Positions 160 to 31,999 of a stretch of DNA of 32,000 nucleotides are shown here, piece after piece. The notes below the pieces were generated by a model. That model searched no databases. It was not told where the DNA came from and was given only the letters and a program-made list of their open reading frames with translations. The first letter of the stretch is position 1. Each line of letters begins with the position of its first letter. The position numbers were made by a program, and so were the translations under genes. This DNA is from Nitrosopumilus maritimus SCM1 (GTDB lineage Archaea; Thermoproteota; Nitrososphaeria; Nitrososphaerales; Nitrosopumilaceae). The DNA lies in assembly GCF_000018465.1 (NCBI RefSeq), contig NC_010085.1:1470001-1502000 (forward strand), given 5' to 3'.

Positions 160-816
160 TTAGAGCTTTACGTAATGTAAAACTAGATGATTTTTGAGCC
201 TCTTTACTGATTTGAGTCTGAGATTAGGAGAATGAGAAATTCTGCTAAATCCAGTACCTCGTAAATAGGAAATAGAGTCTTCTCCACCAAGTAAGTAAGG
301 AGATATCGTTAGTATCATTTCATCAAAGAGATTATGTTTTACAAATTCCCAGTTTACAGTTCCTCCTCCTTCAACCAGTATTGTTTTGATTTTCTTTTTT
401 GATAGTTTTTTCAACAGTAATTTTAAATTCACAGAATCATTACCGGTACTAATTATTTCAACAGGGAATTTTTCTAGTTTTTCAAGATTTTTTTTAGTAA
501 TTTTTTTAGATATTGCAATTATCGTTGGAACTTTGTTACTTGATTGAAGAATTTTTGATGTTTTTGAAATAGTACCTTTAGAATCTAAAACAATTCTGAT
601 AGGGTTTTTTCCTTTAACATGACGAACAGTCAAGAGAGGATTATCACGTGATGCGGTATTTTTTCCAATAAGAATTGCATCTACACTTGAACGTAATTTA
701 TGAAGTCTTTGAATATCTTTTTGTGATGAAAGTTTTGAATCGTTTGTTTTAGTTGCAATTTTTCCATCAACAGATATTGCTCCACTTAGAATAACATGAG
801 GTCTAGATTTTTCCAT
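160..816 (-). CDS. arfC: 2,5-diamino-6-ribosylamino-4(3H)-pyrimidinone 5'-phosphate reductase (RibD C-terminal/DHFR-like fold, archaeal ArfC type)
   Basis: ATG at 814-816. N-terminus PHVILSGAISVDGKIA and later ILVEGGGTVNWEF are typical of RibD-C/ArfC reductases. It is the last gene of the riboflavin operon and overlaps the upstream gene by 14 nt. Confidence 0.85.
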   Translation of the reverse strand: MEKSRPHVILSGAISVDGKIATKTNDSKLSSQKDIQRLHKLRSSVDAILIGKNTASRDNPLLTVRHVKGKNPIRIVLDSKGTISKTSKILQSSNKVPTIIAISKKITKKNLEKLEKFPVEIISTGNDSVNLKLLLKKLSKKKIKTILVEGGGTVNWEFVKHNLFDEMILTISPYLLGGEDSISYLRGTGFSRISHSPNLRLKSVKRLKNHLVLHYVKL

Positions 817-1993
817 GAACTATTTTACCTCCAATCATTACTGCTTGGATTGCAGATTCAGATGCTCTATGTACAATAGATGCATATGGTTCATGCATTG
901 GTTCTAAATCTAATGCATGTTTGTTTAGAAATATGCAATCAGCAATTTTTTTGGTTTCAATTACTCCAATGTCTTTTTTTAGTATTTTTCCTCCATTTAC
1001 GGTAGCCATTTTCAAAATTTCTTTAGGATTGATTCTTTTTTTATGAATGCCCATTGTGACTTTCCAAAGATAATCCATTTCTCTGAACATGTCAGGAGAG
1101 TTTATCATAACATTATCTGTGCCTAATCCAAGCGTACAACCGGCCTTTTGCATCAAAGTAATGTCAGGAATTCCTTCAGCCAAAGAAGAATTTGCTCTTG
1201 GGCAAACTACTATTCCTCGAGTTTTTTTTGCAGCTAGATGAAGATCACTGTTTGATGCATGAGTCATATGAATAAGAAAATGAGGTTTCATGGACAATGC
1301 ACGAATCACTTCAGATTTTCTAGTCATCTTTTTAGATCTTGAAACGCTCTGTTTTGTTTCAGCAGAATGAATTGCTCGAATCTTTGATGTCTTTGAGTAA
1401 TGATTCAATGTTGAAGTACTGTTCTCATTTGCACCACTAACTCCAATACCATCACATTTTTGAAGAATTAGAGGCAATTCCTTGGCTTTTTCTTTAGGAA
1501 TGGGGAGATTTTTTTTGATTTCAGTTGAATTTTGGTAGAAATTAACCCTACCCAAAATAATTGATCGGATTGGAATTTCAGATAATGTTTTTTTCAACAA
1601 GATAACACCATCTAAACCCCCTTCTCTAAAATCAACAAAGGTGGTTATTCCTTTTCTAATCATAGAATGACATGTATTTTTCATAAAATTAGACAAATTT
1701 TCAGGAGGAGTGTTTTTTAGAATTTTTGACTTTGCCCCAAAAACAGGATGTATTTTTTTATCTACAGAACTTTCTAGAGTGACATCTTTTCCAATTGAAT
1801 CACCTATGTGTGTATGTGCATTGATAAATCCTGGGATCAATAAAAGATCTTCACAGTCAATAGAATCCTCTTTACCACTTGGTTTAATGTTAGGTTGAAT
1901 TCGTTTGAATCTACCATCTTGAATTTGTACATTTGTTTTTGAAACAAATTCTAATTCTTTTCCTAAAAGGAGACTAATGTTCTTGATTAACAT
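803..1993 (-). CDS. Metal-dependent amidohydrolase superfamily protein (chlorohydrolase / aminopyrimidine-purine deaminase-like)
   Basis: 396 aa. HxH metal motif PGFINAHTHIGDS near the N-terminus and later GTDN, typical of the ATZ/TRZ-MtaD-guanine deaminase branch. Overlaps arfA by 7 nt (1987-1993) and arfC by 14 nt (803-816). Confidence 0.85.
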   Translation of the reverse strand: MLIKNISLLLGKELEFVSKTNVQIQDGRFKRIQPNIKPSGKEDSIDCEDLLLIPGFINAHTHIGDSIGKDVTLESSVDKKIHPVFGAKSKILKNTPPENLSNFMKNTCHSMIRKGITTFVDFREGGLDGVILLKKTLSEIPIRSIILGRVNFYQNSTEIKKNLPIPKEKAKELPLILQKCDGIGVSGANENSTSTLNHYSKTSKIRAIHSAETKQSVSRSKKMTRKSEVIRALSMKPHFLIHMTHASNSDLHLAAKKTRGIVVCPRANSSLAEGIPDITLMQKAGCTLGLGTDNVMINSPDMFREMDYLWKVTMGIHKKRINPKEILKMATVNGGKILKKDIGVIETKKIADCIFLNKHALDLEPMHEPYASIVHRASESAIQAVMIGGKIVHGKI

Positions 1994-2742
1994 GATAATT
2001 CATAAACTTCAGGTTTTTCTTTTCCTGAATCTCGAATTTCACGAATTGTATCAAGCGATTTTGTGGCTAATTTTACAGCATCTCTACATGTAGAAGCATT
2101 ACCAATACCACAATTCAGAAAAATCTTATCATCATTTTTTATCATGTTAATGAAATCTTGTACAGATTTTTTTCCATCATCACTTGCAACTACCATAAAG
2201 TTATCACCTCCCATAAAAAACGTAAGTGAATTTTTTTCCAGAAAATATTTTGACATTCTTGAATATAATTGAAAGATTATAGATGAAATCTCATATGGAG
2301 AATTGGTTGTTCTTTTAGATGAAAGATCATCAACGTCCAAATGCATTATAGTGATTTTAGAATCAGATGTGTCATCATTAACAAATCCAAAAATATTGTA
2401 TTGTTTGTCTAGTACAACTTCATTCTTCTTTCCGTCATATGCTTTCAAATTTGCTTCAAATGGAGATTCAGCAAAACCAATTGAAATTGTTAGATATACT
2501 TCAAATGATTTTTCCAGTGTTTTTTGAATTTCAATGTGTTCTTCCAAGCCAACTCCATTTGAGACAACAAAAAATTCATCAGCTCTGTTTAGAAAAACAA
2601 GACAATTCTTTTCAGAAAATAATTTTTGTAATTGTTTGTACAGAGATGCTTGAAGCATTTGTAATTCATGCTCTCTATCGCTGCCCAAAGTTAAAGTCCA
2701 TGGACCATAACCTGTTATTTTCAAGATACTTAGTTGAATCAT
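1987..2742 (-). CDS. arfA: GTP cyclohydrolase III (archaeal, forms the FAPy intermediate)
   Basis: The N-terminus MIQLSILKITGYGPWTLTLGSDREHELQMLQASLY matches the MJ0145-type GTP cyclohydrolase III signature (xxYGPWTxT). ATGA start/stop overlap with ribH at 2739-2742. Confidence 0.9.
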   Translation of the reverse strand: MIQLSILKITGYGPWTLTLGSDREHELQMLQASLYKQLQKLFSEKNCLVFLNRADEFFVVSNGVGLEEHIEIQKTLEKSFEVYLTISIGFAESPFEANLKAYDGKKNEVVLDKQYNIFGFVNDDTSDSKITIMHLDVDDLSSKRTTNSPYEISSIIFQLYSRMSKYFLEKNSLTFFMGGDNFMVVASDDGKKSVQDFINMIKNDDKIFLNCGIGNASTCRDAVKLATKSLDTIREIRDSGKEKPEVYELSC

Positions 2743-3155
2743 TTTTGAATCCTTTTGAGTTCTGATGAAATCTTTACGACTGCTTCTACGGCACGTTCAG
2801 CTACAGGTCTAATTCGGGCATGGGCATGTCTTTCCTGCATTCCAGGACCAGATATTCCTAAAGATACAGGTTTTTGGTGTTTAATCGATAAATCAGTAAG
2901 TGCCTGAGCAGCAGCATGAGAAATAACCTCATCATGTTTGGTTTGACCTTTGATAATGGCACCCAAAGTGACTACAGCATCAACATCATTTTTTTGTAAC
3001 AACGTATCAACAATTATGGGCATATCATATGCGCCTGGAACAGAACAAGTATAGGTTATTTTTAATTTCAATGAATCAGCTTTTTCTTGTGCTACTGAAA
3101 GCATTCTAGATGTCACTTCGTCATTGAATTCCGAAACCACTATAGCAATATTCAA
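2739..3155 (-). CDS. ribH: 6,7-dimethyl-8-ribityllumazine synthase
   Basis: 138 aa. IAIVVSEFNDEVT, VPGAYDMP, VVTLGAIIKGQTKHDEVI and SLGISGPGM are classic RibH motifs. The start codon is TTG (3153-3155); no ATG is available. Confidence 0.92.
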   Translation of the reverse strand: MNIAIVVSEFNDEVTSRMLSVAQEKADSLKLKITYTCSVPGAYDMPIIVDTLLQKNDVDAVVTLGAIIKGQTKHDEVISHAAAQALTDLSIKHQKPVSLGISGPGMQERHAHARIRPVAERAVEAVVKISSELKRIQK

Positions 3156-3157
3156 AA

Positions 3158-3823
3158 TTAATGCACCTTAGCGTATTCTAGTAGTTCTTTTCCATCAATT
3201 AATGGAATTCCATTTTGTTTTGCAAACTTTTCGGCTTTATCAACAGACAATGCAGTATATGTTTCAGCATCCATCATTTCACATATTGCAGATACTGGGG
3301 TTAAACCTGCAATCTGTGTAAGATAGACAGACATTTCTGTGTGTCCTTGACGTGCTGCTAGCAAACCTTTTGATGCAATAAGTAAAGGAACGTGTCCTGG
3401 TGTTTTGAAAGATGATGCAAACTTTTTTTGTTTATTTTCAACATTGTAAATATTTGCCATTTCTCGTATTGTTAATGATCTGTCATTATCAGTGATTCCA
3501 GTATAGGTTTGATAATGATTTACAGATAAGGAAAATGTTGGATGATCACCATAAGGAGCTAATCCCATAATCATTTCTTTGTTAGATATAGAAGAATCAG
3601 CTAAAATGTCATGCATGTATTTTAGTTCAAGTGAATTGGCAAATTGATTATCTATTGCAATACAAAGTAATCCACCAGCATGTTGACGCATTCGGGCAAC
3701 ATGTTCAGGAGTAACAAATTCTGCTGCAACCATCATATCAATCTCATTTTCTCGTCCAGCAGAGTCAAACAAGAGAACAAATTCTCCTCTTTTTAGAGAT
3801 TGTAGTGCAGTTTCAAGAGACAT
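3158..3823 (-). CDS. ribB: 3,4-dihydroxy-2-butanone 4-phosphate synthase
   Basis: GEFVLLFDSAGRENEIDMMVAAEFVTPEHVARMRQHAGGLLC and TGITDNDRS are RibB signatures. The ORF-track start at 3880 is a TTG that adds 19 hydrophobic residues. I prefer the ATG at 3821-3823 (MSLETALQSL...). Confidence 0.92.
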   Translation of the reverse strand: MSLETALQSLKRGEFVLLFDSAGRENEIDMMVAAEFVTPEHVARMRQHAGGLLCIAIDNQFANSLELKYMHDILADSSISNKEMIMGLAPYGDHPTFSLSVNHYQTYTGITDNDRSLTIREMANIYNVENKQKKFASSFKTPGHVPLLIASKGLLAARQGHTEMSVYLTQIAGLTPVSAICEMMDAETYTALSVDKAEKFAKQNGIPLIDGKELLEYAKVH

Positions 3824-3901
3824 AAACAAAAAAATCCTCAGACTGATTATAAAGCTTACTTGAGAATTGGTAATTACCAATAAAGTGGTAGTTTTTCAGG
3901 C

Positions 3902-4486
3902 TTATTTTAGAATATATTTTCCGAGAATGTCAGTTTCAATATTAACTTTGTCGCCTACTTTTTTTGTTTGAAAATTAGTAACCTCAATTGTATGAGGAAT
4001 TAATGAAACAGATGCAAGATTTTTTTTGATGTCAGTTACTGTCAAACTTATTCCATCAACTGCAATAGAACCCTTTTTGACTACATATTTTGCCAATTTT
4101 TTAGGTACTTCAAACCAAACTTGAACCTCTTTGGGTTTTTTTTGAATTTTTTTAATTATTCCTACACCATCCACATGTCCTAAAACAAAATGACCTTCTA
4201 GTCTATCTCCAGCCTTTAAACTTCGTTCAATGTTCACTATTCCACCAACCTCAAGATTACCAAGATCAGTTTTCTTTGTTGTTTCTTCAATCATCTCAAA
4301 TATACAACTAGATTTTGATAGTTTTGTTGCAGTAAGACACACACCATTTAGGGCAACACTTTGTCCAATTTTCAATCCCTTTGCATGTTTACCAAGATTT
4401 ACAGTCATCTGTACTGCACTTCGATTTTTTGTATTTTTAGAAATTTTTTCTACTTTACCTATTCCTTTAACAATTCCGGTAAACAT
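3902..4486 (-). CDS. ribE: Riboflavin synthase, bacterial/eukaryotic two-barrel (RibE/RibC) type
   Basis: Canonical MFTGIV start (ATG at 4484-4486; an alternative ATG lies 9 nt upstream at 4495). Motifs: GQSVALNGVCLT, GHFVLGHVDG, KGSIAVDGISLTV, LIPHT. Confidence 0.92.
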   Translation of the reverse strand: MFTGIVKGIGKVEKISKNTKNRSAVQMTVNLGKHAKGLKIGQSVALNGVCLTATKLSKSSCIFEMIEETTKKTDLGNLEVGGIVNIERSLKAGDRLEGHFVLGHVDGVGIIKKIQKKPKEVQVWFEVPKKLAKYVVKKGSIAVDGISLTVTDIKKNLASVSLIPHTIEVTNFQTKKVGDKVNIETDILGKYILK

Positions 4487-4519
4487 CAAAATCATCTAAT
4501 AACTGACGTATAAAATGAT

Positions 4520-9728: not shown

Positions 9729-10397
9729 CTACATAAAAATGGTTTTTTCGTACTCATAGAGCATTCTGGCAACAACAGTATGACCTTCAAAGGGTTCATT
9801 GCCAACTGAATACATCTGGGCAAATTTTTTTTCAATAGAATCTGAAAAATGTCCTTTCTGGAACCCTCCAAACACAAGACAATAATCAGTATTGATCTCA
9901 GATACAATTTTTTCATACGAATTTTCAGTTCCCTTGGTAGAGAATCCAATTATTTTTGAAGGGTTTATTTCATCAATTAATTCTGAAAATGTTTTATTTT
10001 TGATTTCAAGTAGTGTTTCATTATTTGCAATTATCTTTTTTTCTTTATACAATTTTTCAATCAATCCTGCAAACCTATGATAAGATTTTGGCACATGCAC
10101 ATTTTGACCAAAATAGATCACCTTATCATCAATTGTATGAACATAGAGTTTGATTTTGTTTTTTAGATAAAGTGGAATTGTTGTTGCTTCAAGTATTGAA
10201 AAATGCACAAGGTCTGGTCTACCTCTCTTTAATTCATTGATGATTCCTTTCATTGCTGCAAAGTGCCATGAGTTATCTAGTAGAATTTCCGATGAAAGTT
10301 TTCCGAGTTTTCTTGCATGAGAAATTACTGATTGATGATGTTTTAGTTCAGATGGAACAAGTTCTAATGCTGATTCAGCTAAAACTACAGAAATCAT
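9729..10397 (-). CDS. nep1: Ribosome biogenesis protein Nep1/Emg1 (SSU rRNA pseudouridine N1-methyltransferase, SPOUT)
   Basis: 222 aa. VVLAESALELVP, GRPDLVHFSILEA and LVFGGFQKGHFS match the Nep1 family pattern. Confidence 0.85.
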   Translation of the reverse strand: MISVVLAESALELVPSELKHHQSVISHARKLGKLSSEILLDNSWHFAAMKGIINELKRGRPDLVHFSILEATTIPLYLKNKIKLYVHTIDDKVIYFGQNVHVPKSYHRFAGLIEKLYKEKKIIANNETLLEIKNKTFSELIDEINPSKIIGFSTKGTENSYEKIVSEINTDYCLVFGGFQKGHFSDSIEKKFAQMYSVGNEPFEGHTVVARMLYEYEKTIFM

Positions 10398-11569: not shown

Positions 11570-14224
11570 CTATCCAGAAGTACAACCACTAAATCCACAT
11601 TCAATGCAGATACTGCAACCTTCTACAAATACAAGGTTGTTCTTACATGTTGGACATAGACGATCTTCTGCAACTTCTTCTTGTTGTTGAATTGGTTCAG
11701 ATTTGATTTCTTCGTCATGTACCTTTAATGCAAGTGCTGCATTAACTTGTGATTTGATGTATGGGTTTGTGATTTGTGTTGAAACATAGTTTGTTACATG
11801 TTCACTTGGTGTAACATCAAATGTTTTTTCTGCATTTTCACTTGTCATATGAAGAACTTGTTTGTGTCTAGAGCCATCACGGTACACTGTGATACCTTTT
11901 AGACCAATCTCATGTGCCAACAGATATGCAGATTTTACATCTTCTGCAGTTACATCATATGGCATGTTGATTGTTTTTGCAATTGCATTTCCAATCCAGT
12001 CTTGCCATACACCTTGAGCCATCAAGTGATCAGACCAGTGAATGTCCATTGCGGTTACAAAGACATCTTGCATCCATTGAGGAATTTCATCAATTCCTTT
12101 CAATGAACCATAGTTGTCTGCAATTTTTGCAAGGATTTCATCGTTGTATAGGTTATTTTCTTTTAGGACTTGTTCAACAATCTTGTTTGTATAGAAGAAT
12201 CTTCCTACAGTAACTCTCTTCTCAAATACCAATGCAAATGCAGGTTCCATTCCGTTTGAACAATCTGCAATCATTGACAAAGTACCTGTTGGAGCTACTG
12301 TTGTTGTTAGGACATTTCTAATTCCATATTGTTTGATTTTCTCAACTAGTGCATCCCATTCATAAGAGTGAGATTCTTTTGGCTTTTCATAATAGCCTGC
12401 AACAGGAATCTTTCCTTCAGGATATTCCGTCTTGGAGCACAGTGGGAATTCACCACGAGACTTGGCAAGGGCTACACTTTCTTCCATGGAATAGTATGTT
12501 AAGGCTTCAGATAGTTTGGATTGTAATTCATATCCCTCTTTAGAGTTGTATGGGATTCTTAGTTTGTACAAGAGATCTGCTACTCCCATTACACCTAATC
12601 CAATTCTTCGGGATTCCTTTGATGCTACATTGATCTCTGGAACTGGATAGTGATTAACATCAATGATGTTATCAAGGAATCTTGTAGTCTTTCTGATTGT
12701 TTCTTCATATCTTTGCCAATCAAATTCATAGGTTCCATCTGCTTGTCTCTTTACGAGATTTACTAAATTGATAGAACCAAGATTGCATGATTCGTATGGG
12801 TAAAGACTTTGTTCACCACATGGATTTGTTGCACGTAATGGTGCTTGTCTTGCTTTTGCAAATACATTGTATTTGTTAATTTGATCAAAGAAGATCAAAC
12901 CAGGTTCTGCACTCTTCCATGCAGATAATGCAATCAAGTCAATTAGTTGGTGTGCGTTAATTTCTTTAACTGGTTTTTTGTCACGTGGACTACGTAAAAC
13001 ATAGTTACCATCACTAGTGTTTACAAGTGCATGCCAAAAGTCTTCCCAAACACCAACGCTGACGTTAAAGTTTTCTAAAACACCAGGTTCTGTTTTGTTT
13101 GTGATGAATTTTTCAACATCTGGATGCCATGCTTCAATTATACCCATGTTTGCACCACGTCTCTTTCCTCCTTGTTTAACAACTTCAGTTACAGTGTTAA
13201 TGATGTTCATGAAGGAAACCGGACCGGATGCAACACCTGATGTTGATGCTACAATGTCACCTTCTTCACGAAGATCAGAATAGTTGATTCCAACTCCACC
13301 ACCAGATTTGAAGATTAATGCTGCATCAGAAGTTGATTTCATGATTTCTTCCATGCCATCTTGCATTCCAAGTACAAAGCATGCAGAGAGTTGACCTAGT
13401 CTGCCACCTGCATTCATCATTGTTGGAGAGTTTGGCAAAAAGTCTTGAGAAACCATCAGATCAAAGTACTCTGTGATTTTATCAGCATAGCCATCTAGTT
13501 TCTTTGCTGCAAGTAGTGTCAAAAGTTCTTTGAAGCTTATCTTCATGTGACCTTTGTTTGCAAGTGTTACGTAGTGGTTGATGAGTGATCTGAAATGCCA
13601 TTTGTTGAAGAAATAGTCTCCAACTTTGAATTTGTAATCAAAGGCATCTAGTTTTTCAAGATAAGACTTTGCTTCTTCTACATCTTGTTTTGTATTTCCA
13701 GATTTGTCAAAGACTTGGGCGTCATACATGAGATCACCAATTCCGACAAGTATTGCGACTCTCTCAAACATTTGAGTTGGAGATTCAATAATCTCATTCT
13801 TTCCATTTCTGAAAAGGTATCTTGATGCTAAAACTCTAAGACAATTCAAATCAAACTTTTTGGAGACTGGATCAAGGGCCTTTAGATTCAGGACCTTCAT
13901 TTTCTCGTCTCTTAGTTTTCTTCTCTCATGTCTGTAAACAATGTAGGCTTTTGCAATATCGCTATTGCCACTGTCAATCAAAGTAGACTCTACAATATCT
14001 TGAATATCTTCAACAGTAGGGCTTCTCGTACTAGTGAAGCCTTGCTCTACTAACTTGTTAACAACATTATCTGCTAACTGATCGGCTAGACCACGGTCGG
14101 CTTTAGAGGTGGCAGCCAATGCCTTGTAAATGGCATTTGAAATTTTATCCTTATTGAAAGCCGTTACTGCGCCACTGCGCTTACGGATCTCATTGATAGT
14201 ATTTTCTATTTGTGAATTATCCAT
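11570..14224 (-). CDS. nrdJ: Adenosylcobalamin-dependent ribonucleotide reductase (class II) with N-terminal ATP-cone and C-terminal zinc ribbon
   Basis: 884 aa. There is an ATP-cone at the N-terminus (KRSGAVTAFNKDKISNAIYKA...AKAYIVYRHERR). The catalytic loop is ATNPCGEQSLYPYESCNLGSINL. The C-terminal ribbon is CPTCKNN...CSICIECG. Confidence 0.95.
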   Translation of the reverse strand: MDNSQIENTINEIRKRSGAVTAFNKDKISNAIYKALAATSKADRGLADQLADNVVNKLVEQGFTSTRSPTVEDIQDIVESTLIDSGNSDIAKAYIVYRHERRKLRDEKMKVLNLKALDPVSKKFDLNCLRVLASRYLFRNGKNEIIESPTQMFERVAILVGIGDLMYDAQVFDKSGNTKQDVEEAKSYLEKLDAFDYKFKVGDYFFNKWHFRSLINHYVTLANKGHMKISFKELLTLLAAKKLDGYADKITEYFDLMVSQDFLPNSPTMMNAGGRLGQLSACFVLGMQDGMEEIMKSTSDAALIFKSGGGVGINYSDLREEGDIVASTSGVASGPVSFMNIINTVTEVVKQGGKRRGANMGIIEAWHPDVEKFITNKTEPGVLENFNVSVGVWEDFWHALVNTSDGNYVLRSPRDKKPVKEINAHQLIDLIALSAWKSAEPGLIFFDQINKYNVFAKARQAPLRATNPCGEQSLYPYESCNLGSINLVNLVKRQADGTYEFDWQRYEETIRKTTRFLDNIIDVNHYPVPEINVASKESRRIGLGVMGVADLLYKLRIPYNSKEGYELQSKLSEALTYYSMEESVALAKSRGEFPLCSKTEYPEGKIPVAGYYEKPKESHSYEWDALVEKIKQYGIRNVLTTTVAPTGTLSMIADCSNGMEPAFALVFEKRVTVGRFFYTNKIVEQVLKENNLYNDEILAKIADNYGSLKGIDEIPQWMQDVFVTAMDIHWSDHLMAQGVWQDWIGNAIAKTINMPYDVTAEDVKSAYLLAHEIGLKGITVYRDGSRHKQVLHMTSENAEKTFDVTPSEHVTNYVSTQITNPYIKSQVNAALALKVHDEEIKSEPIQQQEEVAEDRLCPTCKNNLVFVEGCSICIECGFSGCTSG

Positions 14225-14233
14225 TATAATCTC

Positions 14234-14265
14234 CCCGCAAGGGTTATGATCAATGCGGGTATAAA
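14234..14265 (-). promoter_or_regulatory. nrdJ core promoter: TATA box (TTTATA, 14260-14265 on the minus strand) directly followed by the GC-rich inverted repeat CCCGCA-N14-TGCGGG
   Basis: Plus-strand cccgca at 14234-14239 pairs with tgcggg at 14254-14259. The 14-nt spacer contains tgatca. The element lies between the TATA box and the ATG at 14224. Confidence 0.4.
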
Positions 14266-14427
14266 TGATTTGTCAGTTTTTGTCTAAAAGTTCGGTTCAA
14301 AAAATTTGACAACGCTACTATGAACTTCATAATGGCATAACTTCTGCGATAGACGATGATCGCGAAGGTCTGAAACAGATCAAAAAGTTTTCAAAAATGA
14401 TCGTAACTAGTTTTTCATTTATGAATT

Positions 14428-16599
14428 TCAGACAACATATGGAGACTTGCACTTTGGACACTTATCTTCAAACGGTTCATCTTTAAAACCACACTCACCA
14501 CAGATTGCAATGTCTTGAACAGGCTTGAAGGATGTTGTAAGTTCTGATGTCTTCTCAATTGCTTTTTTAATTTCTGCAGGCTTTGCATCTTTGCCGATAT
14601 TTAGTGTTACAAACAATCCCCCGTTTAGCAACTTTGAGAGTTTGTTACACTCAGAGATTGGCTCGCTCTTGGCAGTATAATCAGAGACTTCAGAGGCATC
14701 AATAATGATTCCCTCAGAATAAGAATCACCTTCCATAGAGTTTAAGGATGAATTTTTGCCATATTTCTCACCATCAAGAGTAGCAAATCTGGTTGCACTT
14801 TCAGTTTCAGTCATGCAAATAGCCACAGGATCACCTAATTCTTTGCCTTTTTTGGCGCCAACGTCTACTGCAGTTTCAATTACCTTGTGAAGGATTTCAC
14901 GACCTTCTTTATTATCTTGGAATCCAAGGATGTTAAAGACTGCCTCTTTGAGGCCTACCAAATTGATTACAAGTGAAACATTACTTTTTTGCATATACTG
15001 AGTATTTTTGGCCAAAATTGGATTCAATCCGCGTCTAGTCAAATCAGAAATGTCTTTCTTTCTCAAGGCCATGGAAGATAAAGCTGGTTTCATGAGTAAT
15101 GCCAATCTTGCTCTAAAGTAAGTTTCATCTTTGTTTGATTCAAATGCTAATCTTGGAAGATTGATTGATACTGATTCAAGCATTATTGAAAGTGGACCAG
15201 AACTTTTAGTTGATCCATTAGTAATACCATGACTTGATGTTTGTCCTTTGGCAAACATTACTTTTCCACCAAGTGAAATTATTTCTGATACTGCTGCTGA
15301 AACATCTGTGATCTTTCCTTTTTCATTATCTATGATTAATCCAATTTTTGGAATTGGGGTAAGCTTTGTGTAGTTTTTGTATGCATTAATAATTGAATTA
15401 ATTATTTTTGTATCAGATCCTAATTGTAATCTAATTGAAACGTTAGTACTTGATTTATTGTATTTGGAAGTTGTAGATGCAGTTGCAAATGCTGTAGTTA
15501 ATTTTTGTTCTAGTTCTGGAAGTGATTTTGAATGTTTTGAGAATAGTGAAACAAATCCATCAAGTATAATTTCTTGTGAAGCTTCTTTTGAAAGAAGAGA
15601 GACTACAATAGACAGTGCACTTGTAATTTCATCAAGTTGTTTTGATGCAGGAATTCTTGAAACATCAAGATACTTTCCACCAAGATCAATTCCATCTTCA
15701 ATTAATTCTTTAATGTTAACAAACATTGTATCAGGAATCATTGACCAGATTCCAGGATTTGTAATGTGTAGATCACCAGAAAGATGAGAGTCAGCTACAT
15801 CTTTTGGTAAGATGTTTGTCAGAAGATGTTCAGCAAATACTGTTTGTCCTGTTTTAAACAAGAGACCTTCAGCGCCATTGTCTACATTGTCTAGATTAGT
15901 AATCATCTCTTGAACGTCAAACACAGGCAAGCCTAGGCGTGCAAGCTTGTTGCGGTATTCCTCATGACCATGCTCAAGCAAGACAGAGTTTACCATTTCC
16001 CTGATAAGTGAGCCTGTAAGATAGGTAGTTTGATATTTGTAGATTCTATTTTCAACTTCTTCAGTAATTTTTTGTGCTAATTCAAGTGGGAGGCTACCTT
16101 CACGTACCAATGATTGTATGATTTTGTGAGAATTAAATTCCTCAATTGATTCGTGTGATGTTCTAACATACATCTTTCCACTTTCAATAATTGATCTTTC
16201 TTCAATTTGTCTTGCTAAGCTCAAAACTAGTTTTCCAAGATTTGTAATTGTGTAACGTCTTTCAGATTTGTTTAATGCAACAAGTGATTGTCTAAGTAAT
16301 TTTCTCAAGTGGTATGCAAATTTTCCACTCTCTTTTTTTGATTTGAATCCAGCCAGAGATTTTAATTCTGAATAAGTTAGAGGGCCTTTTGAATTTAGAA
16401 TTCTCAGGATATCGATTCTGTTAGGACTTGCCATGACAGAAAAGATCATTCTGACACGTTTTGATGTAGATTGTAAAATTCCACCGCGTTTTGGTGAATC
16501 TGAATCATCATCTAAGTCTGTATCTAGATCATCGTCATCCATGTCTGCATCTAGATCACCTTCTAGATCCATTTCTAATTCTTCATCAGACATTTTCAT
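14428..16599 (-). CDS. Multidomain protein: acidic tail + ArsR-like wHTH + ATP-cone + class III RNR (NrdD)-like domain + C-terminal zinc ribbon; no glycyl-radical motif
   Basis: 723 aa. wHTH: NRIDILRILNSKGPLTYSELKSLAG...FAYHLRKLLRQSLV. ATP-cone: YVRTSHESIEEFNSHKIIQSLVREG...LIREMVNSVLLEHGHEEY. HLSGDLHITNPG resembles the NrdD G-x-IHIHD region. The C-terminus is CGECGF...CPKCKSPYVV-stop, with nothing resembling R-x-x-G-Y after the ribbon. Confidence 0.7.
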   Translation of the reverse strand: MKMSDEELEMDLEGDLDADMDDDDLDTDLDDDSDSPKRGGILQSTSKRVRMIFSVMASPNRIDILRILNSKGPLTYSELKSLAGFKSKKESGKFAYHLRKLLRQSLVALNKSERRYTITNLGKLVLSLARQIEERSIIESGKMYVRTSHESIEEFNSHKIIQSLVREGSLPLELAQKITEEVENRIYKYQTTYLTGSLIREMVNSVLLEHGHEEYRNKLARLGLPVFDVQEMITNLDNVDNGAEGLLFKTGQTVFAEHLLTNILPKDVADSHLSGDLHITNPGIWSMIPDTMFVNIKELIEDGIDLGGKYLDVSRIPASKQLDEITSALSIVVSLLSKEASQEIILDGFVSLFSKHSKSLPELEQKLTTAFATASTTSKYNKSSTNVSIRLQLGSDTKIINSIINAYKNYTKLTPIPKIGLIIDNEKGKITDVSAAVSEIISLGGKVMFAKGQTSSHGITNGSTKSSGPLSIMLESVSINLPRLAFESNKDETYFRARLALLMKPALSSMALRKKDISDLTRRGLNPILAKNTQYMQKSNVSLVINLVGLKEAVFNILGFQDNKEGREILHKVIETAVDVGAKKGKELGDPVAICMTETESATRFATLDGEKYGKNSSLNSMEGDSYSEGIIIDASEVSDYTAKSEPISECNKLSKLLNGGLFVTLNIGKDAKPAEIKKAIEKTSELTTSFKPVQDIAICGECGFKDEPFEDKCPKCKSPYVV

Positions 16600-16736
16600 G
16601 TATTTTTCTAAAAAAACGCACTAATTAAGACTTATGACAGAATGAATTTGGATCATTTTTGATCATTTTTCTAAATGCATTGAAAGATTTTTGATCTAAT
16701 TTTTAAAAATTGTAAAAAAAGATCAAATAGGAGAGA

Positions 16737-16898
16737 TTATTTTTCTTGAACATCTAGTGAAAACTCGGATGTAGAGAGTTTCTGTCCACATGACGGACAT
16801 TTTCCACTATAAGGATTCATTACATCTTTTAGTGATTTTAACATCTTCATGTTTGTGATCTTTTCACCACATTTTCCACATGTTACTTCTACTGACAT
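16737..16898 (-). CDS. Small zinc-ribbon protein, 53 aa (not in ORF track)
   Basis: Hand translation from ATG 16896-16898 to TAA 16737-16739: MSVEVTCGKCGEKITNMKMLKSLKDVMNPYSGKCPSCGQKLSTSEFSLDVQEK. It has two CxxC knuckles, and an A/T-rich TATA-like region lies about 25 nt upstream. Confidence 0.5.
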   Translation of the reverse strand: MSVEVTCGKCGEKITNMKMLKSLKDVMNPYSGKCPSCGQKLSTSEFSLDVQEK

Positions 16899-27802: not shown

Positions 27803-29169
27803 CAAGTAGAAACCTCCTTTGAGAATTGTGATAGTGCATCTCCAAAGTCAGCATCACTGGAATCATACTTTGCATACTCTACACTTCCACAAAGTAACAG
27901 CCAACCTCTTACCTTGCCAAATGCATCTGATTTTGATTCATCAAGCACACTTAGTAACTCTTGGTTTGTCATTTCTTTGTAAATTTCCATATTTTGTGAA
28001 TAATAGTATCGAATTGCCTGACTGAGTGTTTCAAATGCTTCTTTTCTTTGATTATTATCAAACAAATTCTGAGATTTGTTTATCATTTGTTGAGTTAATT
28101 CTCTAAAGTCAGTTTGAGGCTTTGACACTTGCAATAGTGGTTCTTCATACTTTCTTTCTGATAATTTCTTGCGCAATAGATATCCAAATACTGCTAATGC
28201 AACAAATACTGGAATAATCAAGAGTAGTGAAATATTTTCAAAGCTTTGTGTAGGTGCAGTTACTTGGAACGGATTACTCTGTAATGAATCACGTATGTGT
28301 CTTGTATTTTCGAACTTTGGTTTTTCAAATTTGAAATTATCAAATATGTTTTCTGGTTCACTTGTAGGTGCAGAAACAGCTATACCAGTATCAGGTAATT
28401 TACCAGGTGGAAGCTGTTCACCAGACAATATACCATCAAATAGTTGCAGAGTCTGTTCAGAGAATGCATCATTCATTCTTTCTTGAATTTGTTCTTTAGT
28501 TAGTAAGAGATAGTTTGGAGAGTATTCCCTTAGATCAAACTCACCCTCACCACTAAACGTAGCATCTTCCATCATTTGTCTACCAAGTGTGAATTCTTTA
28601 GGAGTAAAGATGTCGTTTGGAATTGCTGCTAAATTATCCATACTGTATCCACGTTCAAGCACAAAAAGCTCCAAGTTTGAGTTTGGATTATAATCAAATG
28701 CCTGACCTTTTATCAAATATCTACTATCTCCAATAGGATCAAGCAAAGCTTCTGCAATTTCGACATAGCCATCAGAAAATCGGTCATAATATTTTATTTT
28801 ATGTTTAAAACTTTCTTGTCTAAGATCTCGTTGTTCAATTAGCATTCCATTTAGAATTTGACCTTCTTCTGAATCAATTGTAATTTTATAATCTCCAATA
28901 GAGTAGTTGTTACCTGTAATGAATTTATCATAAATTGGTTTTACAGATTCTGTATTTTCTACTACCAATTCTTCATAGCTGGAAACTATTTCAGCTTCTT
29001 GCGTTGTAACATGTTCTTTTTCAAGTTGCCCTTCAATTAACCAATCCATTTGAATTTCGGTAGATTCTGCAAATGCAGGATTCACAGCTATGAGAGGTAA
29101 TAACAAAAAGATTCCAATAATTTTTTTGCTAAAAAGTAAAGAGTTATGCGACAATTCTATACCTGCCAT
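27802..29169 (-). CDS. Type I membrane protein: signal peptide, ~290-aa extracytoplasmic domain, one TM helix, ~120-aa cytoplasmic helical tail (DUF4129-like by eye)
   Basis: Signal peptide IIGIFLLLPLIAVNPAFA|E. TM helix ISLLLIIPVFVALAVFGYLL followed by RKK. The tail AIRYYYSQ...MTNQELLSVL...CGSVEYAKYDSS resembles the DUF4129 pattern seen next to MoxR/DUF58 genes. It overlaps the vWA gene by 26 nt. Confidence 0.75.
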   Translation of the reverse strand: MAGIELSHNSLLFSKKIIGIFLLLPLIAVNPAFAESTEIQMDWLIEGQLEKEHVTTQEAEIVSSYEELVVENTESVKPIYDKFITGNNYSIGDYKITIDSEEGQILNGMLIEQRDLRQESFKHKIKYYDRFSDGYVEIAEALLDPIGDSRYLIKGQAFDYNPNSNLELFVLERGYSMDNLAAIPNDIFTPKEFTLGRQMMEDATFSGEGEFDLREYSPNYLLLTKEQIQERMNDAFSEQTLQLFDGILSGEQLPPGKLPDTGIAVSAPTSEPENIFDNFKFEKPKFENTRHIRDSLQSNPFQVTAPTQSFENISLLLIIPVFVALAVFGYLLRKKLSERKYEEPLLQVSKPQTDFRELTQQMINKSQNLFDNNQRKEAFETLSQAIRYYYSQNMEIYKEMTNQELLSVLDESKSDAFGKVRGWLLLCGSVEYAKYDSSDADFGDALSQFSKEVST

Positions 29170-30094
29170 AAATTATGTAAGCATCAATTAGCAATAATCC
29201 AATTGCAGCAGCTATAAACCAATCTCTTATTGTAGAATATTCAATTTCATAAGCAAGATTAGAGCTAAGATTAACAAAAATTTCATTTAATGTTTGCTCA
29301 TCAAGTGATTTGTAGTAATTTCCAGAGGTTTGTTGTGCAATAATTACAAGTGTTTCTTCATCTAATTCTGCATATTGTGGTTCGCCATAGATATCATCTC
29401 TTAGAAAAACAGGTTCAATTGAACCTAATCCAATTGTATGAATTTGGACATTGTTGATTTTTGCATACTCTGTTGCTTCTTCTGGTGTTACTAATCCGGA
29501 ATTATGTACTCCGTCACTCAGTAAGATCACTACACCTTTCTTGTCAGGAATTGATGAAGCCATATCTACTCCAAGTGCAAGTCCATCTCCAATGGCAGTA
29601 GCACCCAATCCTTGTTCTATTGATGAAATTGCATTAACTGATTTTTCTTTATCAGGTGTAAGGTAAGAAACAGTTGTTGCACCTGACTCAAAGAGAACAA
29701 CTCCCACATTATGCTGAGGTCCCATTTTTAGAATCAGATTATTTATGGCGTTTTTTGCAGCATCCAGACGTGTTGGCTCATAATCTGTGGCTGCCATACT
29801 TTCAGAACCATCTAAAACTATGCTCAAATTGATGCCATTTTCAACTGATAGTGTTGGGATTTGAGGATTTGCAAGTCCAATAATTGCCAATCCGAGAATC
29901 CCCATCATCAAGACAAATGGCAAATGTTTTCGCAGAAAGTTTTTGCCCATTACAGATTTTTTTACAATTTTTAGTGAGCTAAATTTCATGATAGAATCTT
30001 TTTTCTCAGAATTGTATTTTGAATAAAGAACATACAATCCAGGAATTATCAAAAGCAAAAATAATGCATAAAGATATTCAAAATGAATTTCCAT
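29144..30094 (-). CDS. Membrane-anchored von Willebrand factor A domain protein (BatA-like)
   Basis: Two N-terminal TM helices and one C-terminal TM helix. vWA MIDAS motif VLDGSESM (D-x-S-x-S), then LLSDGVHN. The gene directly abuts DUF58 (stop at 30095-30097, ATG at 30092-30094). Confidence 0.85.
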   Translation of the reverse strand: MEIHFEYLYALFLLLIIPGLYVLYSKYNSEKKDSIMKFSSLKIVKKSVMGKNFLRKHLPFVLMMGILGLAIIGLANPQIPTLSVENGINLSIVLDGSESMAATDYEPTRLDAAKNAINNLILKMGPQHNVGVVLFESGATTVSYLTPDKEKSVNAISSIEQGLGATAIGDGLALGVDMASSIPDKKGVVILLSDGVHNSGLVTPEEATEYAKINNVQIHTIGLGSIEPVFLRDDIYGEPQYAELDEETLVIIAQQTSGNYYKSLDEQTLNEIFVNLSSNLAYEIEYSTIRDWFIAAAIGLLLIDAYIIYGRYRIVA

Positions 30095-30967
30095 CTATTT
30101 TCTCCTCCGAGTATGAATATAGCGATTAAATGTAACATCAAAGGGTTCCTCATTTGAAAGATTCAAAAAATCAACTCCCAGTTTTTTCATTTCATATTCA
30201 ATTTCTTCTCTAGTCTTCTTAATAAGATTAGAATACTCTTCTTGGAATTTTTTATCAGAAGTGTTTACCAGTATTTGTTCTCCAGATTCTGCATCCTCTA
30301 GATATACATGACCAATTTCAGGAATCTCTGTTTCACGAATATCAGAAATATTTACTAAAACAATTTGATGTTTTAATTTTAGATATTGCAATGGCTTTAC
30401 GAATGAATCTGACATAAAATCTGAAACAACAAAAACAACACTTCGACGTTTTAGATTTTTTTGTAATTCTGATAATGATCTAAAGATATCTGTTTGTGTA
30501 CTTTGAGGAGTGTATTCTAATAATTTTTTTAAAATTTCCATCATGTGTTTTTTGCCTTTTTTTGCAGGAACAAATTTTTCCAATGAATCTGTAAAAAGAC
30601 CCAATCCAACTCTGTCATTGTTCTTTAGTGCAGAAAACATCAGAGAAGCTGTTATCTCAAATCCAAGTTCTTTTTTACTCTTTACAAAACCAAAGTCATT
30701 ACTTGCAGACATGTCCATTACAACATAGACGTTAAGCTCTTTTTCTTCGACAAACTCTTTTACAAAAAGATCATTGTATCTAGCTGAAACATTCCAATCC
30801 ACTCTTCTGGCATCATCACCAGCTGCATACTCTCTAACCTCAGAGAACTCAATTCCTCCACCTCTAAATCTGGACCTGTAGGCACCAGATTCCATGCCTT
30901 CGACTAGATTTTTGGTCTTGATATCCAGGTTTTTTACCTGCTTCAAGAGTTCTGTGAGTTCAGTCAT
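30095..30967 (-). CDS. DUF58 family protein (degenerate vWA-like, MoxR partner)
   Basis: GGGIEFSEVREYAAGDDARRVDWNVSAR and YVVMDMSASN are the DUF58 signature. It sits 9 nt downstream of moxR. Confidence 0.85.
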   Translation of the reverse strand: MTELTELLKQVKNLDIKTKNLVEGMESGAYRSRFRGGGIEFSEVREYAAGDDARRVDWNVSARYNDLFVKEFVEEKELNVYVVMDMSASNDFGFVKSKKELGFEITASLMFSALKNNDRVGLGLFTDSLEKFVPAKKGKKHMMEILKKLLEYTPQSTQTDIFRSLSELQKNLKRRSVVFVVSDFMSDSFVKPLQYLKLKHQIVLVNISDIRETEIPEIGHVYLEDAESGEQILVNTSDKKFQEEYSNLIKKTREEIEYEMKKLGVDFLNLSNEEPFDVTFNRYIHTRRRK

Positions 30968-30976
30968 GGCCTAAAC

Positions 30977-31999
30977 CTAAGGCGGATTGATTTTTTCTAA
31001 AACAAAGTCAATTACCTTATCAGAGGTAATTCCGTTTGCTTCTGCCTCAAATGTCAAAATTATTCTATGTCTGAGAACTTCGTGTGCAACAGCTTTGACA
31101 TCTTCTGGAATAATGAAGCCCCTTCCATTAAGCATGGCATTTGCTTTTGCAGTTCTCATTAACCAAATTGATGCTCTAGGAGATGCTCCAAACTCTATCA
31201 TATTTTCTAAATCTAGATCATAGTCTTTTGGAGTTCGTGTTGCATTTACAATATCTGCGATATATTCTGTAACTACTTTATCAGCATAAATTTTTTCATT
31301 GAATTTTTGAATTTCTAAAATTTCTTCAGGACTGATAATTGTATTTACTTTATCTTCTTGTTCAGATGAATTTTTTTCAATAATCTCGAGTTCTTCTTGT
31401 TTTGAAGGATAATCAATTAAAATTTTCAGAGCAAATCTATCAACTTGTGCTTCAGGAAGTTTGTATGTTCCCTCGTTTTCAATTGGGTTTTGTGTTGCAA
31501 GAACTAGGAATGGTTTTTTTAATTCAAATGTGTCTCCGTGTATGCTGACATTTCTTTCTTGCATTGCTTCAAGTAATGCTGATTGGACTTTGGGTGGTGC
31601 ACGATTAATCTCATCAGCAAGCACAAAATTATGAAATATCGGACCCTTTTGTGTTACAAATGATCCTGAGGCATTCTTGTAAATTTTTGTTCCTAAAATA
31701 TCTGCTGGAAGTAAATCGGGTGTAAATTGAATTCTAACATGATCAACATTGAAAATTTGTGCCATTGTCTTTACCATCAATGTCTTTGCTAAACCAGGAA
31801 CACTCTCTAAGAGTACATGGCCATCAGCTATTATTGAAATGAGAATTTTCTGTAAAGCGTCTTGTTGTCCAATCACAACTTTATGAGATTCTTCAAAAAC
31901 TGCATTTAGTTTCTTTGCATACTTTTGAGCTTGCTCACTTAGCTTTTTGATATCTTCATTTGATACCGAATAGTTTACGTGATTCTCTCTCAGTGCCAT
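30977..31999 (-). CDS. MoxR-family AAA+ ATPase (AAA_3)
   Basis: 340 aa. VVIGQQDALQKILISIIADGHVLLESVPGLAKT (Walker A), VLADEINRAPPKVQSALLEAMQE (Walker B / sensor region) and ATQNPIENEGTYKLPEAQVDRF. ATG at 31997-31999, 1 nt from the window edge, so an upstream start cannot be excluded. Confidence 0.92.
   Translation of the reverse strand: MALRENHVNYSVSNEDIKKLSEQAQKYAKKLNAVFEESHKVVIGQQDALQKILISIIADGHVLLESVPGLAKTLMVKTMAQIFNVDHVRIQFTPDLLPADILGTKIYKNASGSFVTQKGPIFHNFVLADEINRAPPKVQSALLEAMQERNVSIHGDTFELKKPFLVLATQNPIENEGTYKLPEAQVDRFALKILIDYPSKQEELEIIEKNSSEQEDKVNTIISPEEILEIQKFNEKIYADKVVTEYIADIVNATRTPKDYDLDLENMIEFGASPRASIWLMRTAKANAMLNGRGFIIPEDVKAVAHEVLRHRIILTFEAEANGITSDKVIDFVLEKINPP

Follow-up and report, generated by a model that had tools for sequence, protein, structure and literature searches.

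In bacteria, nucleotide status is tied to the transcription of nrd genes, the genes of the ribonucleotide reductases (RNRs), by the regulator NrdR, a protein that is reported to be rare in archaea (PMC9110341). How the transcription of RNR genes is controlled in archaea is essentially unknown. Gene X, the subject of this report, is an open reading frame of 723 amino acids (aa) in a 32,000-nucleotide (nt) segment of the Nitrosopumilus maritimus SCM1 genome (contig NC_010085.1, positions 1,470,001 to 1,502,000, GC content ~33%), which is termed here the window. Its product, also called X, is probably a pseudoenzyme that acts as a nucleotide-sensing transcriptional regulator of the neighboring RNR gene, as judged from sequence; its DNA binding, its ligand, the sign of the regulation and its targets are what we infer. 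The X family thus offers a testable candidate for such control. An earlier note on this DNA had stated that archaea have no assigned NrdR equivalent. This is too strong, as NrdR is rare in archaea and not absent.

X resembles NrdR in its combination of an ATP-cone with a DNA-binding domain, here a predicted one, and in the linkage of the gene to RNR genes. A further likeness is that phased repeated sites precede both an RNR gene and the gene of the regulator itself, although the sites at X are candidates only. The expected logic, in which nucleotide status governs the transcription of nrd genes, would also be shared. The DNA-binding domain of NrdR however is an N-terminal zinc ribbon, whereas that predicted for X is a winged helix-turn-helix (wHTH) of the ArsR type, and the sole zinc ribbon of X is C-terminal and of the type found in NrdD, the class III RNR. 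X also carries a dead RNR barrel of ~460 aa, and with 723 aa is several times the size of a zinc ribbon plus ATP-cone. Unlike NrdR, it has a cone without the Lys-Arg pair, and its locus is without NrdR boxes. The cone of X is derived from NrdD, thus X would be of independent origin and convergent with NrdR.

Transcription factors that have evolved from enzymes are also known. PurR of B. subtilis is one of these, and GfcR consists of a helix-turn-helix (HTH) and a phosphoribosyltransferase-like domain. X resembles GfcR, NrtR and PurR in the fusion of an HTH to a domain derived from a pathway enzyme, which in X would likewise be reused as a ligand sensor, but the ancestor of X is a radical enzyme of ~600 aa, an RNR. 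GfcR of Haloferax is reported to be a new kind of regulator in archaea (PMC10838023), and NrtR is a Nudix-related regulator (PMC2330246).

The best sequence matches of the N-terminal domain of X are to the ArsR/SmtB proteins (PF12840; YgaV, HlyU, ArsR, CadC). These are stand-alone metal or redox sensors of ~100–120 aa, whereas the wHTH of X is the N-terminal module of a large protein. NrdD itself is homologous to X over the cone, barrel and zinc ribbon, with the same fold, and the VRTS sequence of the X cone is found in a Bathyarchaeia NrdD. X differs from NrdD in the absence of the glycyl-radical domain and of the thiyl-radical Cys, in a degraded HxHD motif, in the added wHTH, and in its occurrence in obligate aerobes. 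Control of RNR genes through a cone is not new in itself, nor are transcription factors that arose from enzymes; the architecture and the family of X are undescribed, and a full-text literature search found no description of the family.

Reductase body and catalytic residues of X

Gene X lies at positions 14428..16599 on the reverse strand, as do all features of the X-nrdJ locus given below, and begins with an ATG. The assignment rests on the open reading frame and on Pfam and NCBIfam matches. The closest protein is a Nitrosopumilus sp. ortholog with 96% identity. The product displays, in order, an acidic disordered tail rich in Asp and Glu (residues 1–45, nt 16465..16599), an ArsR/SmtB-like wHTH (residues 46–130, nt 16210..16464), a variant ATP-cone (residues 142–232, nt 15904..16176), an NrdD-like alpha/beta-barrel body without catalytic residues (residues 233–690, nt 14530..15903), and an NrdD-type zinc ribbon (C700/C703/C714/C717, nt 14428..14529). 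This order and the coordinates agree with those of the earlier note. The stop codon, which the note had placed five residues after the ribbon, follows six residues after the last Cys.

The relationship to NrdD is not evident from X alone. The single sequence, searched against the Protein Data Bank (PDB), finds NrdD only at E~0.3, and a family profile is needed. A profile built from 57 diverse family members gives matches to the NrdD structures of S. thermophilus (9d3x, E = 5e-38), P. copri (8p23, 7.6e-36), T. maritima (4coi, 3.7e-31) and phage T4 (1h78, 1.6e-30). An AlphaFold2 model of X, made with the family alignment, has a mean pLDDT (predicted local distance difference test) of 88.1 and a pTM (predicted template modeling score) of 0.80, with disorder confined to the acidic tail. 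In a Foldseek search of the PDB with this model, the best 36 matches are all NrdD, at 11%–16% identity and with a TM score on the target of up to 0.66. The ten-stranded alpha/beta barrel of class III RNRs is present in X both by homology and by fold.

X matches the Pfam NRDD family (PF13597) with 95 bits. The best stretch, residues 473–719, corresponds to profile positions 278–529 of 562, thus the glycyl-radical part of the profile is not reached. The score against TIGR02487, the NrdD equivalog, is 86.8 bits, about a quarter of the cut-off of 326.35.

The catalytic residues were compared by aligning the 57 members to E. coli NrdD with MAFFT. At the column of the thiyl-radical Cys (C384 in E. 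coli) X has Ile459 (nt 15223..15225), and Cys is found in 0/57 members; the residues there are I (15), L (13), V (8), S (5), T (3) and others. Cys is likewise found in 0/57 members at the column of E. coli C175. X has six Cys residues in total, at 595, at 651 and the four of the ribbon, and none in the finger loop. A view anchored on the NLPR motif, which is independent of the alignment, shows “...SHGITNGS...” in X, compared with “QCCRI” or “QCCAYC” in archaeal NrdDs and “MGCRSF” in E. coli. The finger loop of X is thus remodeled relative to genuine NrdDs. A few Bathyarchaeia members keep “GCR” in the loop (“TGCRF”), while most have T, S, N, L or E.

In real NrdDs the substrate triphosphate is bound by the HxHD motif (PMC11226230), of which X has a remnant. 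As the earlier note had suggested for the site of the G-x-IHIHD motif, “HLSGDLHITN” of X aligns with “HERGDIHYHD” of E. coli NrdD. The remnant is H278-I-T-N281 (nt 15757..15768; residue numbers counted by hand from the invariant D270 and G275 of the family alignment), and the family consensus is H-I-x-N. Other NrdD features are retained. The structural motif N480-L-P-R483 (nt 15151..15162) is kept in most members (N in 57/57, P in 56/57 and R in 53/57), and the four zinc-ribbon Cys residues, which correspond to C644/C647/C662/C665 of E. coli, are kept in 52/57.

The R-x-x-G-Y glycyl-radical motif is absent from X, which terminates directly after the ribbon. A Pfam scan of the 29 other open reading frames in the window, a search limited to these 32 kb, shows no radical-SAM or NrdG-like gene. 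Both absences had been remarked on in the earlier note, together with its proposal of a catalytically dead scaffold, and the alignment now adds the missing thiyl-radical Cys. In all, four catalytic features that are independent of one another are lost or degraded. On the basis of the missing glycyl-radical tail and thiyl-radical Cys, the degraded HxHD motif and the equivalog score far below threshold, X is almost certainly a catalytically dead NrdD scaffold that carries a wHTH and a cone.

Relatives of X show different C-terminal forms. Among 97 representatives of at least 550 aa, 39 end in the ribbon and a tail of 21–50 aa, another 34 end in the ribbon and at most 20 further residues, as X does, and 24 have no ribbon. 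The tailed form is that of Bathyarchaeia, and most tails align with the glycyl-radical segment. The radical Gly in these tails is often replaced by A, S, T, N, D or K, e.g. “YSRSLAKYLP” compared with the canonical “WSRITGYYQ”. Variability of the tail Gly and of the finger-loop residue is what one would expect if constraint were relaxed on a catalytic site no longer in use. Apparent intermediates of decay are visible, i.e. tail kept with a mutated radical Gly, tail lost, and zinc ribbon also lost.

The family is large. A search of 1.84 billion cluster representatives (clusters at 50% identity) yielded 1251 clusters at E ≤ 1e-3, of which 189 reach E ≤ 1e-30, and a scan of species-representative genomes shows at least 598 genome loci. 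The members are from Nitrososphaeria and Bathyarchaeia; by source name there are also members in the cultured Conexivisphaera calida (WP_174447857.1), in other Nitrososphaerota, and in one Asgard (“Ranarchaeia”) metagenome-assembled genome. The possibility that X is a decaying pseudogene was considered and rejected because of the family size, the conservation and the confident fold; that X belongs to the orthogroups common to three cultured Nitrosopumilus strains also speaks against it.

Source annotations of family members conflict: “anaerobic ribonucleoside-triphosphate reductase”, “ArsR family transcriptional regulator”, “helix-turn-helix domain-containing protein” and “DUF7347 domain-containing protein”. 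An orthogroup table common to three cultured Nitrosopumilus strains lists the X ortholog as “ribonucleoside-triphosphate reductase” (PMC6593220). Thousands of database entries carry the first of these names, which is a misannotation. It wrongly implies anaerobic deoxynucleoside triphosphate (dNTP) synthesis in aerobic ammonia-oxidizing archaea, and can mislead metabolic reconstructions as well as metagenome and metatranscriptome surveys.

N-terminal module and gene neighborhoods

The highest conservation in X is found outside of the reductase body. Pairwise identity within the family averages 0.54 in the cone and 0.42 in the wHTH, compared with 0.20–0.30 in parts of the barrel and 0.17 in the acidic tail. 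Between Nitrosopumilus and Nitrosotenuis the wHTH and cone module has 98% identity and the whole proteins 74%; a Nitrososphaerales-type homolog has 78% identity in the module and ~50% overall. The functional core of X therefore lies in the N-terminal module rather than in the reductase body. Nearly all full-length family matches start at query residue ~45, so that the wHTH is ancestral to the family.

The wHTH is recognized by two Pfam families, HTH_20 (PF12840, residues 56–108, 32.5 bits with a cut-off of 27, 8.2e-8) and DUF7347 (PF24038, residues 52–126, 2.9e-10), together at nt ~16210–16464. Profile matches to PDB entries (YgaV, HlyU, PagR, ArsR and CadC, E = 0.004–0.13) are marginal, but they agree with one another and with Pfam. 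The match to the NCBIfam ArsR/SmtB subfamily NF033788 is below the cut-off (23.5 compared with 55). The putative recognition helix (FAYHLRKL) contains Y96-H97, which is invariant in the family.

The acidic tail has a pLDDT below 50 at residues 1–40 and low conservation, and in other lineages it varies in length or is absent. One may speculate that it acts as an autoinhibitory DNA mimic.

The ATP-cone is recognized by PF03477 at residues 143–215 (35.5 bits with a cut-off of 25.8; nt ~15904–16176). V145-R146 and F155 are invariant in the family. In a residue alignment with bona fide cones, those of the NrdJ encoded in the window, of E. coli NrdD and of a Bathyarchaeia NrdD, the cone of X keeps F155, K159-I160, I199..V203 and Y215-R216; R221 is a further listed position of the cone. 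A cone of the same VRTS variant, “QVRTSK”, is present in the genuine NrdD whose gene neighbors X in one lineage of Bathyarchaeia. The variant was thus inherited from an enzyme, which points to X as a duplicated archaeal NrdD.

The neighbor of X in the window is nrdJ (11570..14224), a class II, B12-dependent RNR gene, as the earlier note had it (TIGR02504, 722.6 bits; PF02867, 1.3e-145), whose product has a canonical N-terminal ATP-cone (PF03477, 3.3e-22) and a Cys-rich C-terminus. It is the presumed target of X. Over 80 Nitrosopumilaceae loci, nrdJ is directly downstream of X in 77, and the contigs of the other three end before nrdJ.

In Bathyarchaeia the neighbor is a different RNR gene. In 6/6 loci sampled (L082–L085, L089 and L090; L084 and L085 carry an identical X protein) X immediately precedes a genuine class III nrdD. 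The nrdDs of L082–L085 have an intact RVTGYY or RITGYY segment. The genuine NrdDs encoded beside X in Bathyarchaeia keep WWSR[VI]TGYY and QCCRI, and a glutaredoxin- or thioredoxin-like gene is usually beside the Bathyarchaeia nrdD. The linkage of X to two RNR classes is as expected of a regulator dedicated to RNRs.

Just beyond nrdD in the Bathyarchaeia loci are pyrB and pyrI, the genes of the catalytic and regulatory chains of aspartate carbamoyltransferase. At locus L092, X is directly beside pyrB/pyrI with no nrdD between. The presence of these genes near X (L082–L085, L089, L090 and L092) hints at an ancestral neighborhood of nucleotide metabolism, and possibly at further targets of X.

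Promoter regions and the proposed regulation

The tetranucleotide GATC is overrepresented on both sides of gene X. In the X promoter region (16600..16736) it is found at 16651, 16661, 16693 and 16721, i.e. four times with 0.5 expected, upstream of a conserved GTCATAAGTCTTAATTAGT block (~16620–16638) that resembles a B recognition element (BRE) and TATA box. In the X-nrdJ intergenic region (14225..14427) it is found at 14248, 14358, 14378 and 14399, four times with 0.7 expected. The window has four further intergenic regions (921 bp in total), and none of them contains it.

Over the 80 Nitrosopumilaceae loci, which are related so that their counts are not independent, the GATC density is 24.9 per kb upstream of X and 12.9 per kb upstream of nrdJ, compared with 3.6 per kb in 562 other intergenic segments, i.e. 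7-fold and 3.6-fold higher, respectively. GATC is present upstream of X in 79/80 loci and upstream of nrdJ in 78/78, despite turnover in number and position. The spacing of adjacent words peaks at 10–11, 19–21 and 27–29 bp upstream of X, and at 18–21, 28 and 39–40 bp upstream of nrdJ. The vector strength is highest at a period of 9.5–10 bp (0.45 for X and 0.62 for nrdJ), but the peak is broad. In this respect the arrays resemble iterated sites on one face of the helix. Our working hypothesis is that they are sites of X, i.e. candidate operators.

The proposed course of events is as follows. A duplicated archaeal class III NrdD would have lost its radical chemistry and gained an N-terminal ArsR-type wHTH. 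The NrdD-like barrel would supply a dimeric scaffold, perhaps with a retained effector pocket, and the conserved cone would sense the state of adenine nucleotides (ATP/dATP) or of dNTPs. The nucleotide signal would alter the presentation of the wHTH or the oligomerization of X, and X would bind or release phased sites in two promoters, its own and that of the neighboring RNR gene (nrdJ, or nrdD in Bathyarchaeia). The supply of dNTPs would in this way be set at the level of transcription.

Several observations weigh against this proposal. A cluster of three to four GATC words in a single window is not unusual by chance, and there is the non-independence of the 80 loci. No GATC arrays are found upstream of X in Bathyarchaeia, Conexivisphaera or the Nitrososphaerales-type genome (L087), though the recognition helix is conserved there; the words may thus belong to another factor. 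The whole block thiolase-OB-small zinc ribbon-X-nrdJ-GH is collinear throughout Nitrosopumilaceae, so that the synteny of X and nrdJ by itself is weak evidence. No RNR gene is found beside X in Conexivisphaera, in L087 or in two other Nitrososphaerota lineages (L091 and L092). In Bathyarchaeia, X and nrdD may simply have stayed adjacent after a tandem duplication, and nrdJ may later have taken the place of nrdD at the same site. The hairpin of the X cone reads V-R-T-S-H-E where the canonical sequence is V-R-K-R-D-G. It thus keeps Arg146, the residue before the Lys-Arg pair, but has lost the pair itself, which in the P. copri NrdD cone (Lys7/Arg8) contacts the phosphates (PMC11226230). Nucleotide binding by the X cone therefore cannot be assumed, although it is plausible.

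Four other explanations have to be considered. That X is still an enzyme, i.e. an RNR, another enzyme of the glycyl-radical type or a novel radical enzyme with unrecognized residues or an unrecognized partner, is very improbable. Many database records do name it an anaerobic reductase, the NLPR motif and zinc ribbon are retained, and there are the few Bathyarchaeia members with a finger-loop Cys. These points are outweighed by the absent radical Gly, the lack of the thiyl-radical Cys in 57/57 members, the degraded HxHD motif, the low conservation of the barrel, the poor NCBIfam equivalog score and the lack of an activase gene in the window. In addition, the host is an aerobic ammonia oxidizer with an nrdJ of its own in the genome, and oxygen destroys the glycyl radical of class III RNRs (PMC3019208). 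X may instead be an accessory subunit that does not bind DNA, and modulates NrdJ or NrdD or buffers dNTPs through protein contacts, with the wHTH serving for interaction or oligomerization. Pseudoenzyme paralogs often regulate their active relatives, X adjoins RNR genes, its barrel is retained with a confident fold, and no operator common across phyla was found. This role is nevertheless unlikely, given that the partner would be of class II in one lineage and of class III in another, with different quaternary structures, that Y96/H97 are invariant in a wHTH which matches DNA-binding ArsR/SmtB regulators, and that X is away from any RNR gene in four lineages.

There is a somewhat larger, though still small, chance that X is a transcription factor whose regulon is not mainly RNR, i.e. 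that it controls the thiolase/OB/zinc-ribbon genes, pyrBI, or replication or cell-cycle genes, the adjacency to nrdJ or nrdD being historical. The gene order thiolase-OB-small zinc ribbon-X is kept in L087, where nrdJ is elsewhere; pyrB/pyrI are beside X in L092 and close to it in Bathyarchaeia; and an RFC gene is near X in L091. The GATC arrays however are at the promoters of X and nrdJ and in none of the other intergenic regions of the window, and a cone inherited from an RNR is a natural sensor for dNTP status. The arrays themselves may be unrelated to X, and due to another factor, to a GATC-specific methylation system or to a lineage-specific promoter feature. Their confinement to Nitrosopumilaceae, whereas the wHTH is conserved more widely, the broad periodicity peak, and a DNA methyltransferase gene of the D12 class near X in L087 give this an appreciable weight, but it appears doubtful, considering that the enrichment is specific to the two promoters that flank X and that the arrays outlast the turnover of the surrounding sequence in nearly all loci.

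If X is indeed a regulator of RNR genes, a broader possibility can be put forward tentatively, with rather less confidence than the regulator itself: that the family are a hitherto unrecognized class of phylum-spanning master regulators of archaeal dNTP supply, in which an entire RNR, with a variant activity-site cone and a specificity-site pocket retained at the dimer interface, has been turned into an allosteric sensor that drives a wHTH. dNTP pools would then be read with the same allosteric apparatus as that of the enzyme under control. This would be an independent, convergent answer to the task of NrdR, at work in the archaea that are the most numerous in the ocean, and in hosts of both class II and class III enzymes. 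Even in its narrower form, the candidate regulator is present in marine ammonia oxidizers and in Bathyarchaeia, both very abundant, and X would exemplify a large radical enzyme that became a transcription factor.

Other features of the X loci

A search for NrdR boxes (acaCwAtATaTwGtgt) found none near X or nrdJ; there is one match with three mismatches, at 21355, where 4.2 are expected by chance. The motif CACAAGT/GTCAYAAGTYTT was considered as a shared operator and rejected, as it is specific to the X promoter and that of nrdJ does not match it; in other places CACAAGT is about as frequent as estimated from base composition. An operator conserved across phyla was also rejected, on account of the GATC arrays missing in Bathyarchaeia, Conexivisphaera and L087. 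A third GATC cluster is found inside the DNA that encodes the acidic tail (16527–16566).

The X-nrdJ intergenic region has a TATA-like sequence, CATTTATACCC, at ~14257–14267. A palindrome, TATGAAgTTCATA, is present at a fixed position upstream of nrdJ (14319–14331), and is followed by a conserved segment at 14293–14318, GTAGCGTTGTCAAA..TTGAACCG, i.e. GTAGCG-TTGTCAAA..TTGAACCG. Other Nitrosopumilaceae have different palindromes at the same place (TACAATcaaaATTGTA, CTCCAACactaGTTGGAG, TTCCAAaatttcTTGGAA). This variation looked like covariation. A stable sense-strand RNA hairpin upstream of nrdJ is however unsupported: folding gave a mean z of only −0.56 over 68 unique loci, and the antisense strand is the more stable in 46 compared with 18. 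A search of the region with Rfam gave nothing at the gathering or E-value level.

Upstream of the (grx)-nrdD operon of Bathyarchaeia, a repeated ATACA..TATACA with a spacing of ~11 bp (cATACAaaattttATACAac) was noticed by eye. The repeat regions are at 10311–10399 in L082, 10308–10570 in L083 and 10302–10498 in L084, and may represent a lineage-specific operator.

The D12-class (Dam-like) methyltransferase gene of L087 is at positions 2426–3283, together with an IS66 transposase, a few kb from X. It bears on the question of whether GATC words are methylation sites.

Immediately upstream of X in the window (16737–16898) is an open reading frame that encodes a 53-aa CxxC...CxxC zinc ribbon with no Pfam family. 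It is conserved in 79/80 Nitrosopumilaceae loci, and the remaining contig ends just upstream of X. It also precedes X in L087 (57% identity), but is not conserved in Conexivisphaera. The protein could be a functional companion of X.

The zinc-finger tail is a feature reported for many class II RNRs, and the Cys-rich end of the window NrdJ, CPTC...CSICIECGFSGC (nt 11570–11680), resembles such tails. At the loci L040, L079 and L081 the tblastn match to NrdJ extends no further than the first ~1.4 kb, and at L040 and L079 there is a shift of more than 1 kb in the position of the gene after nrdJ. This pattern suggests an intein or other insertion in the nrdJ of some lineages.

A possible intein was also seen in a genuine NrdD, protein P0254 (1206 aa), which has a RITGYY tail and an insertion of ~470 aa exactly at the finger loop (…SSNCCAYL…). 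The insertion looks like an intein at the site of the thiyl-radical Cys.

The outer parts of the window (160–4495 and 29144–31999) present an ordinary context, a riboflavin biosynthesis cluster (RibD_C, GTP cyclohydrolase III, lumazine synthase, DHBP synthase and riboflavin synthase) and a MoxR-DUF58-VWA/BatA cluster.

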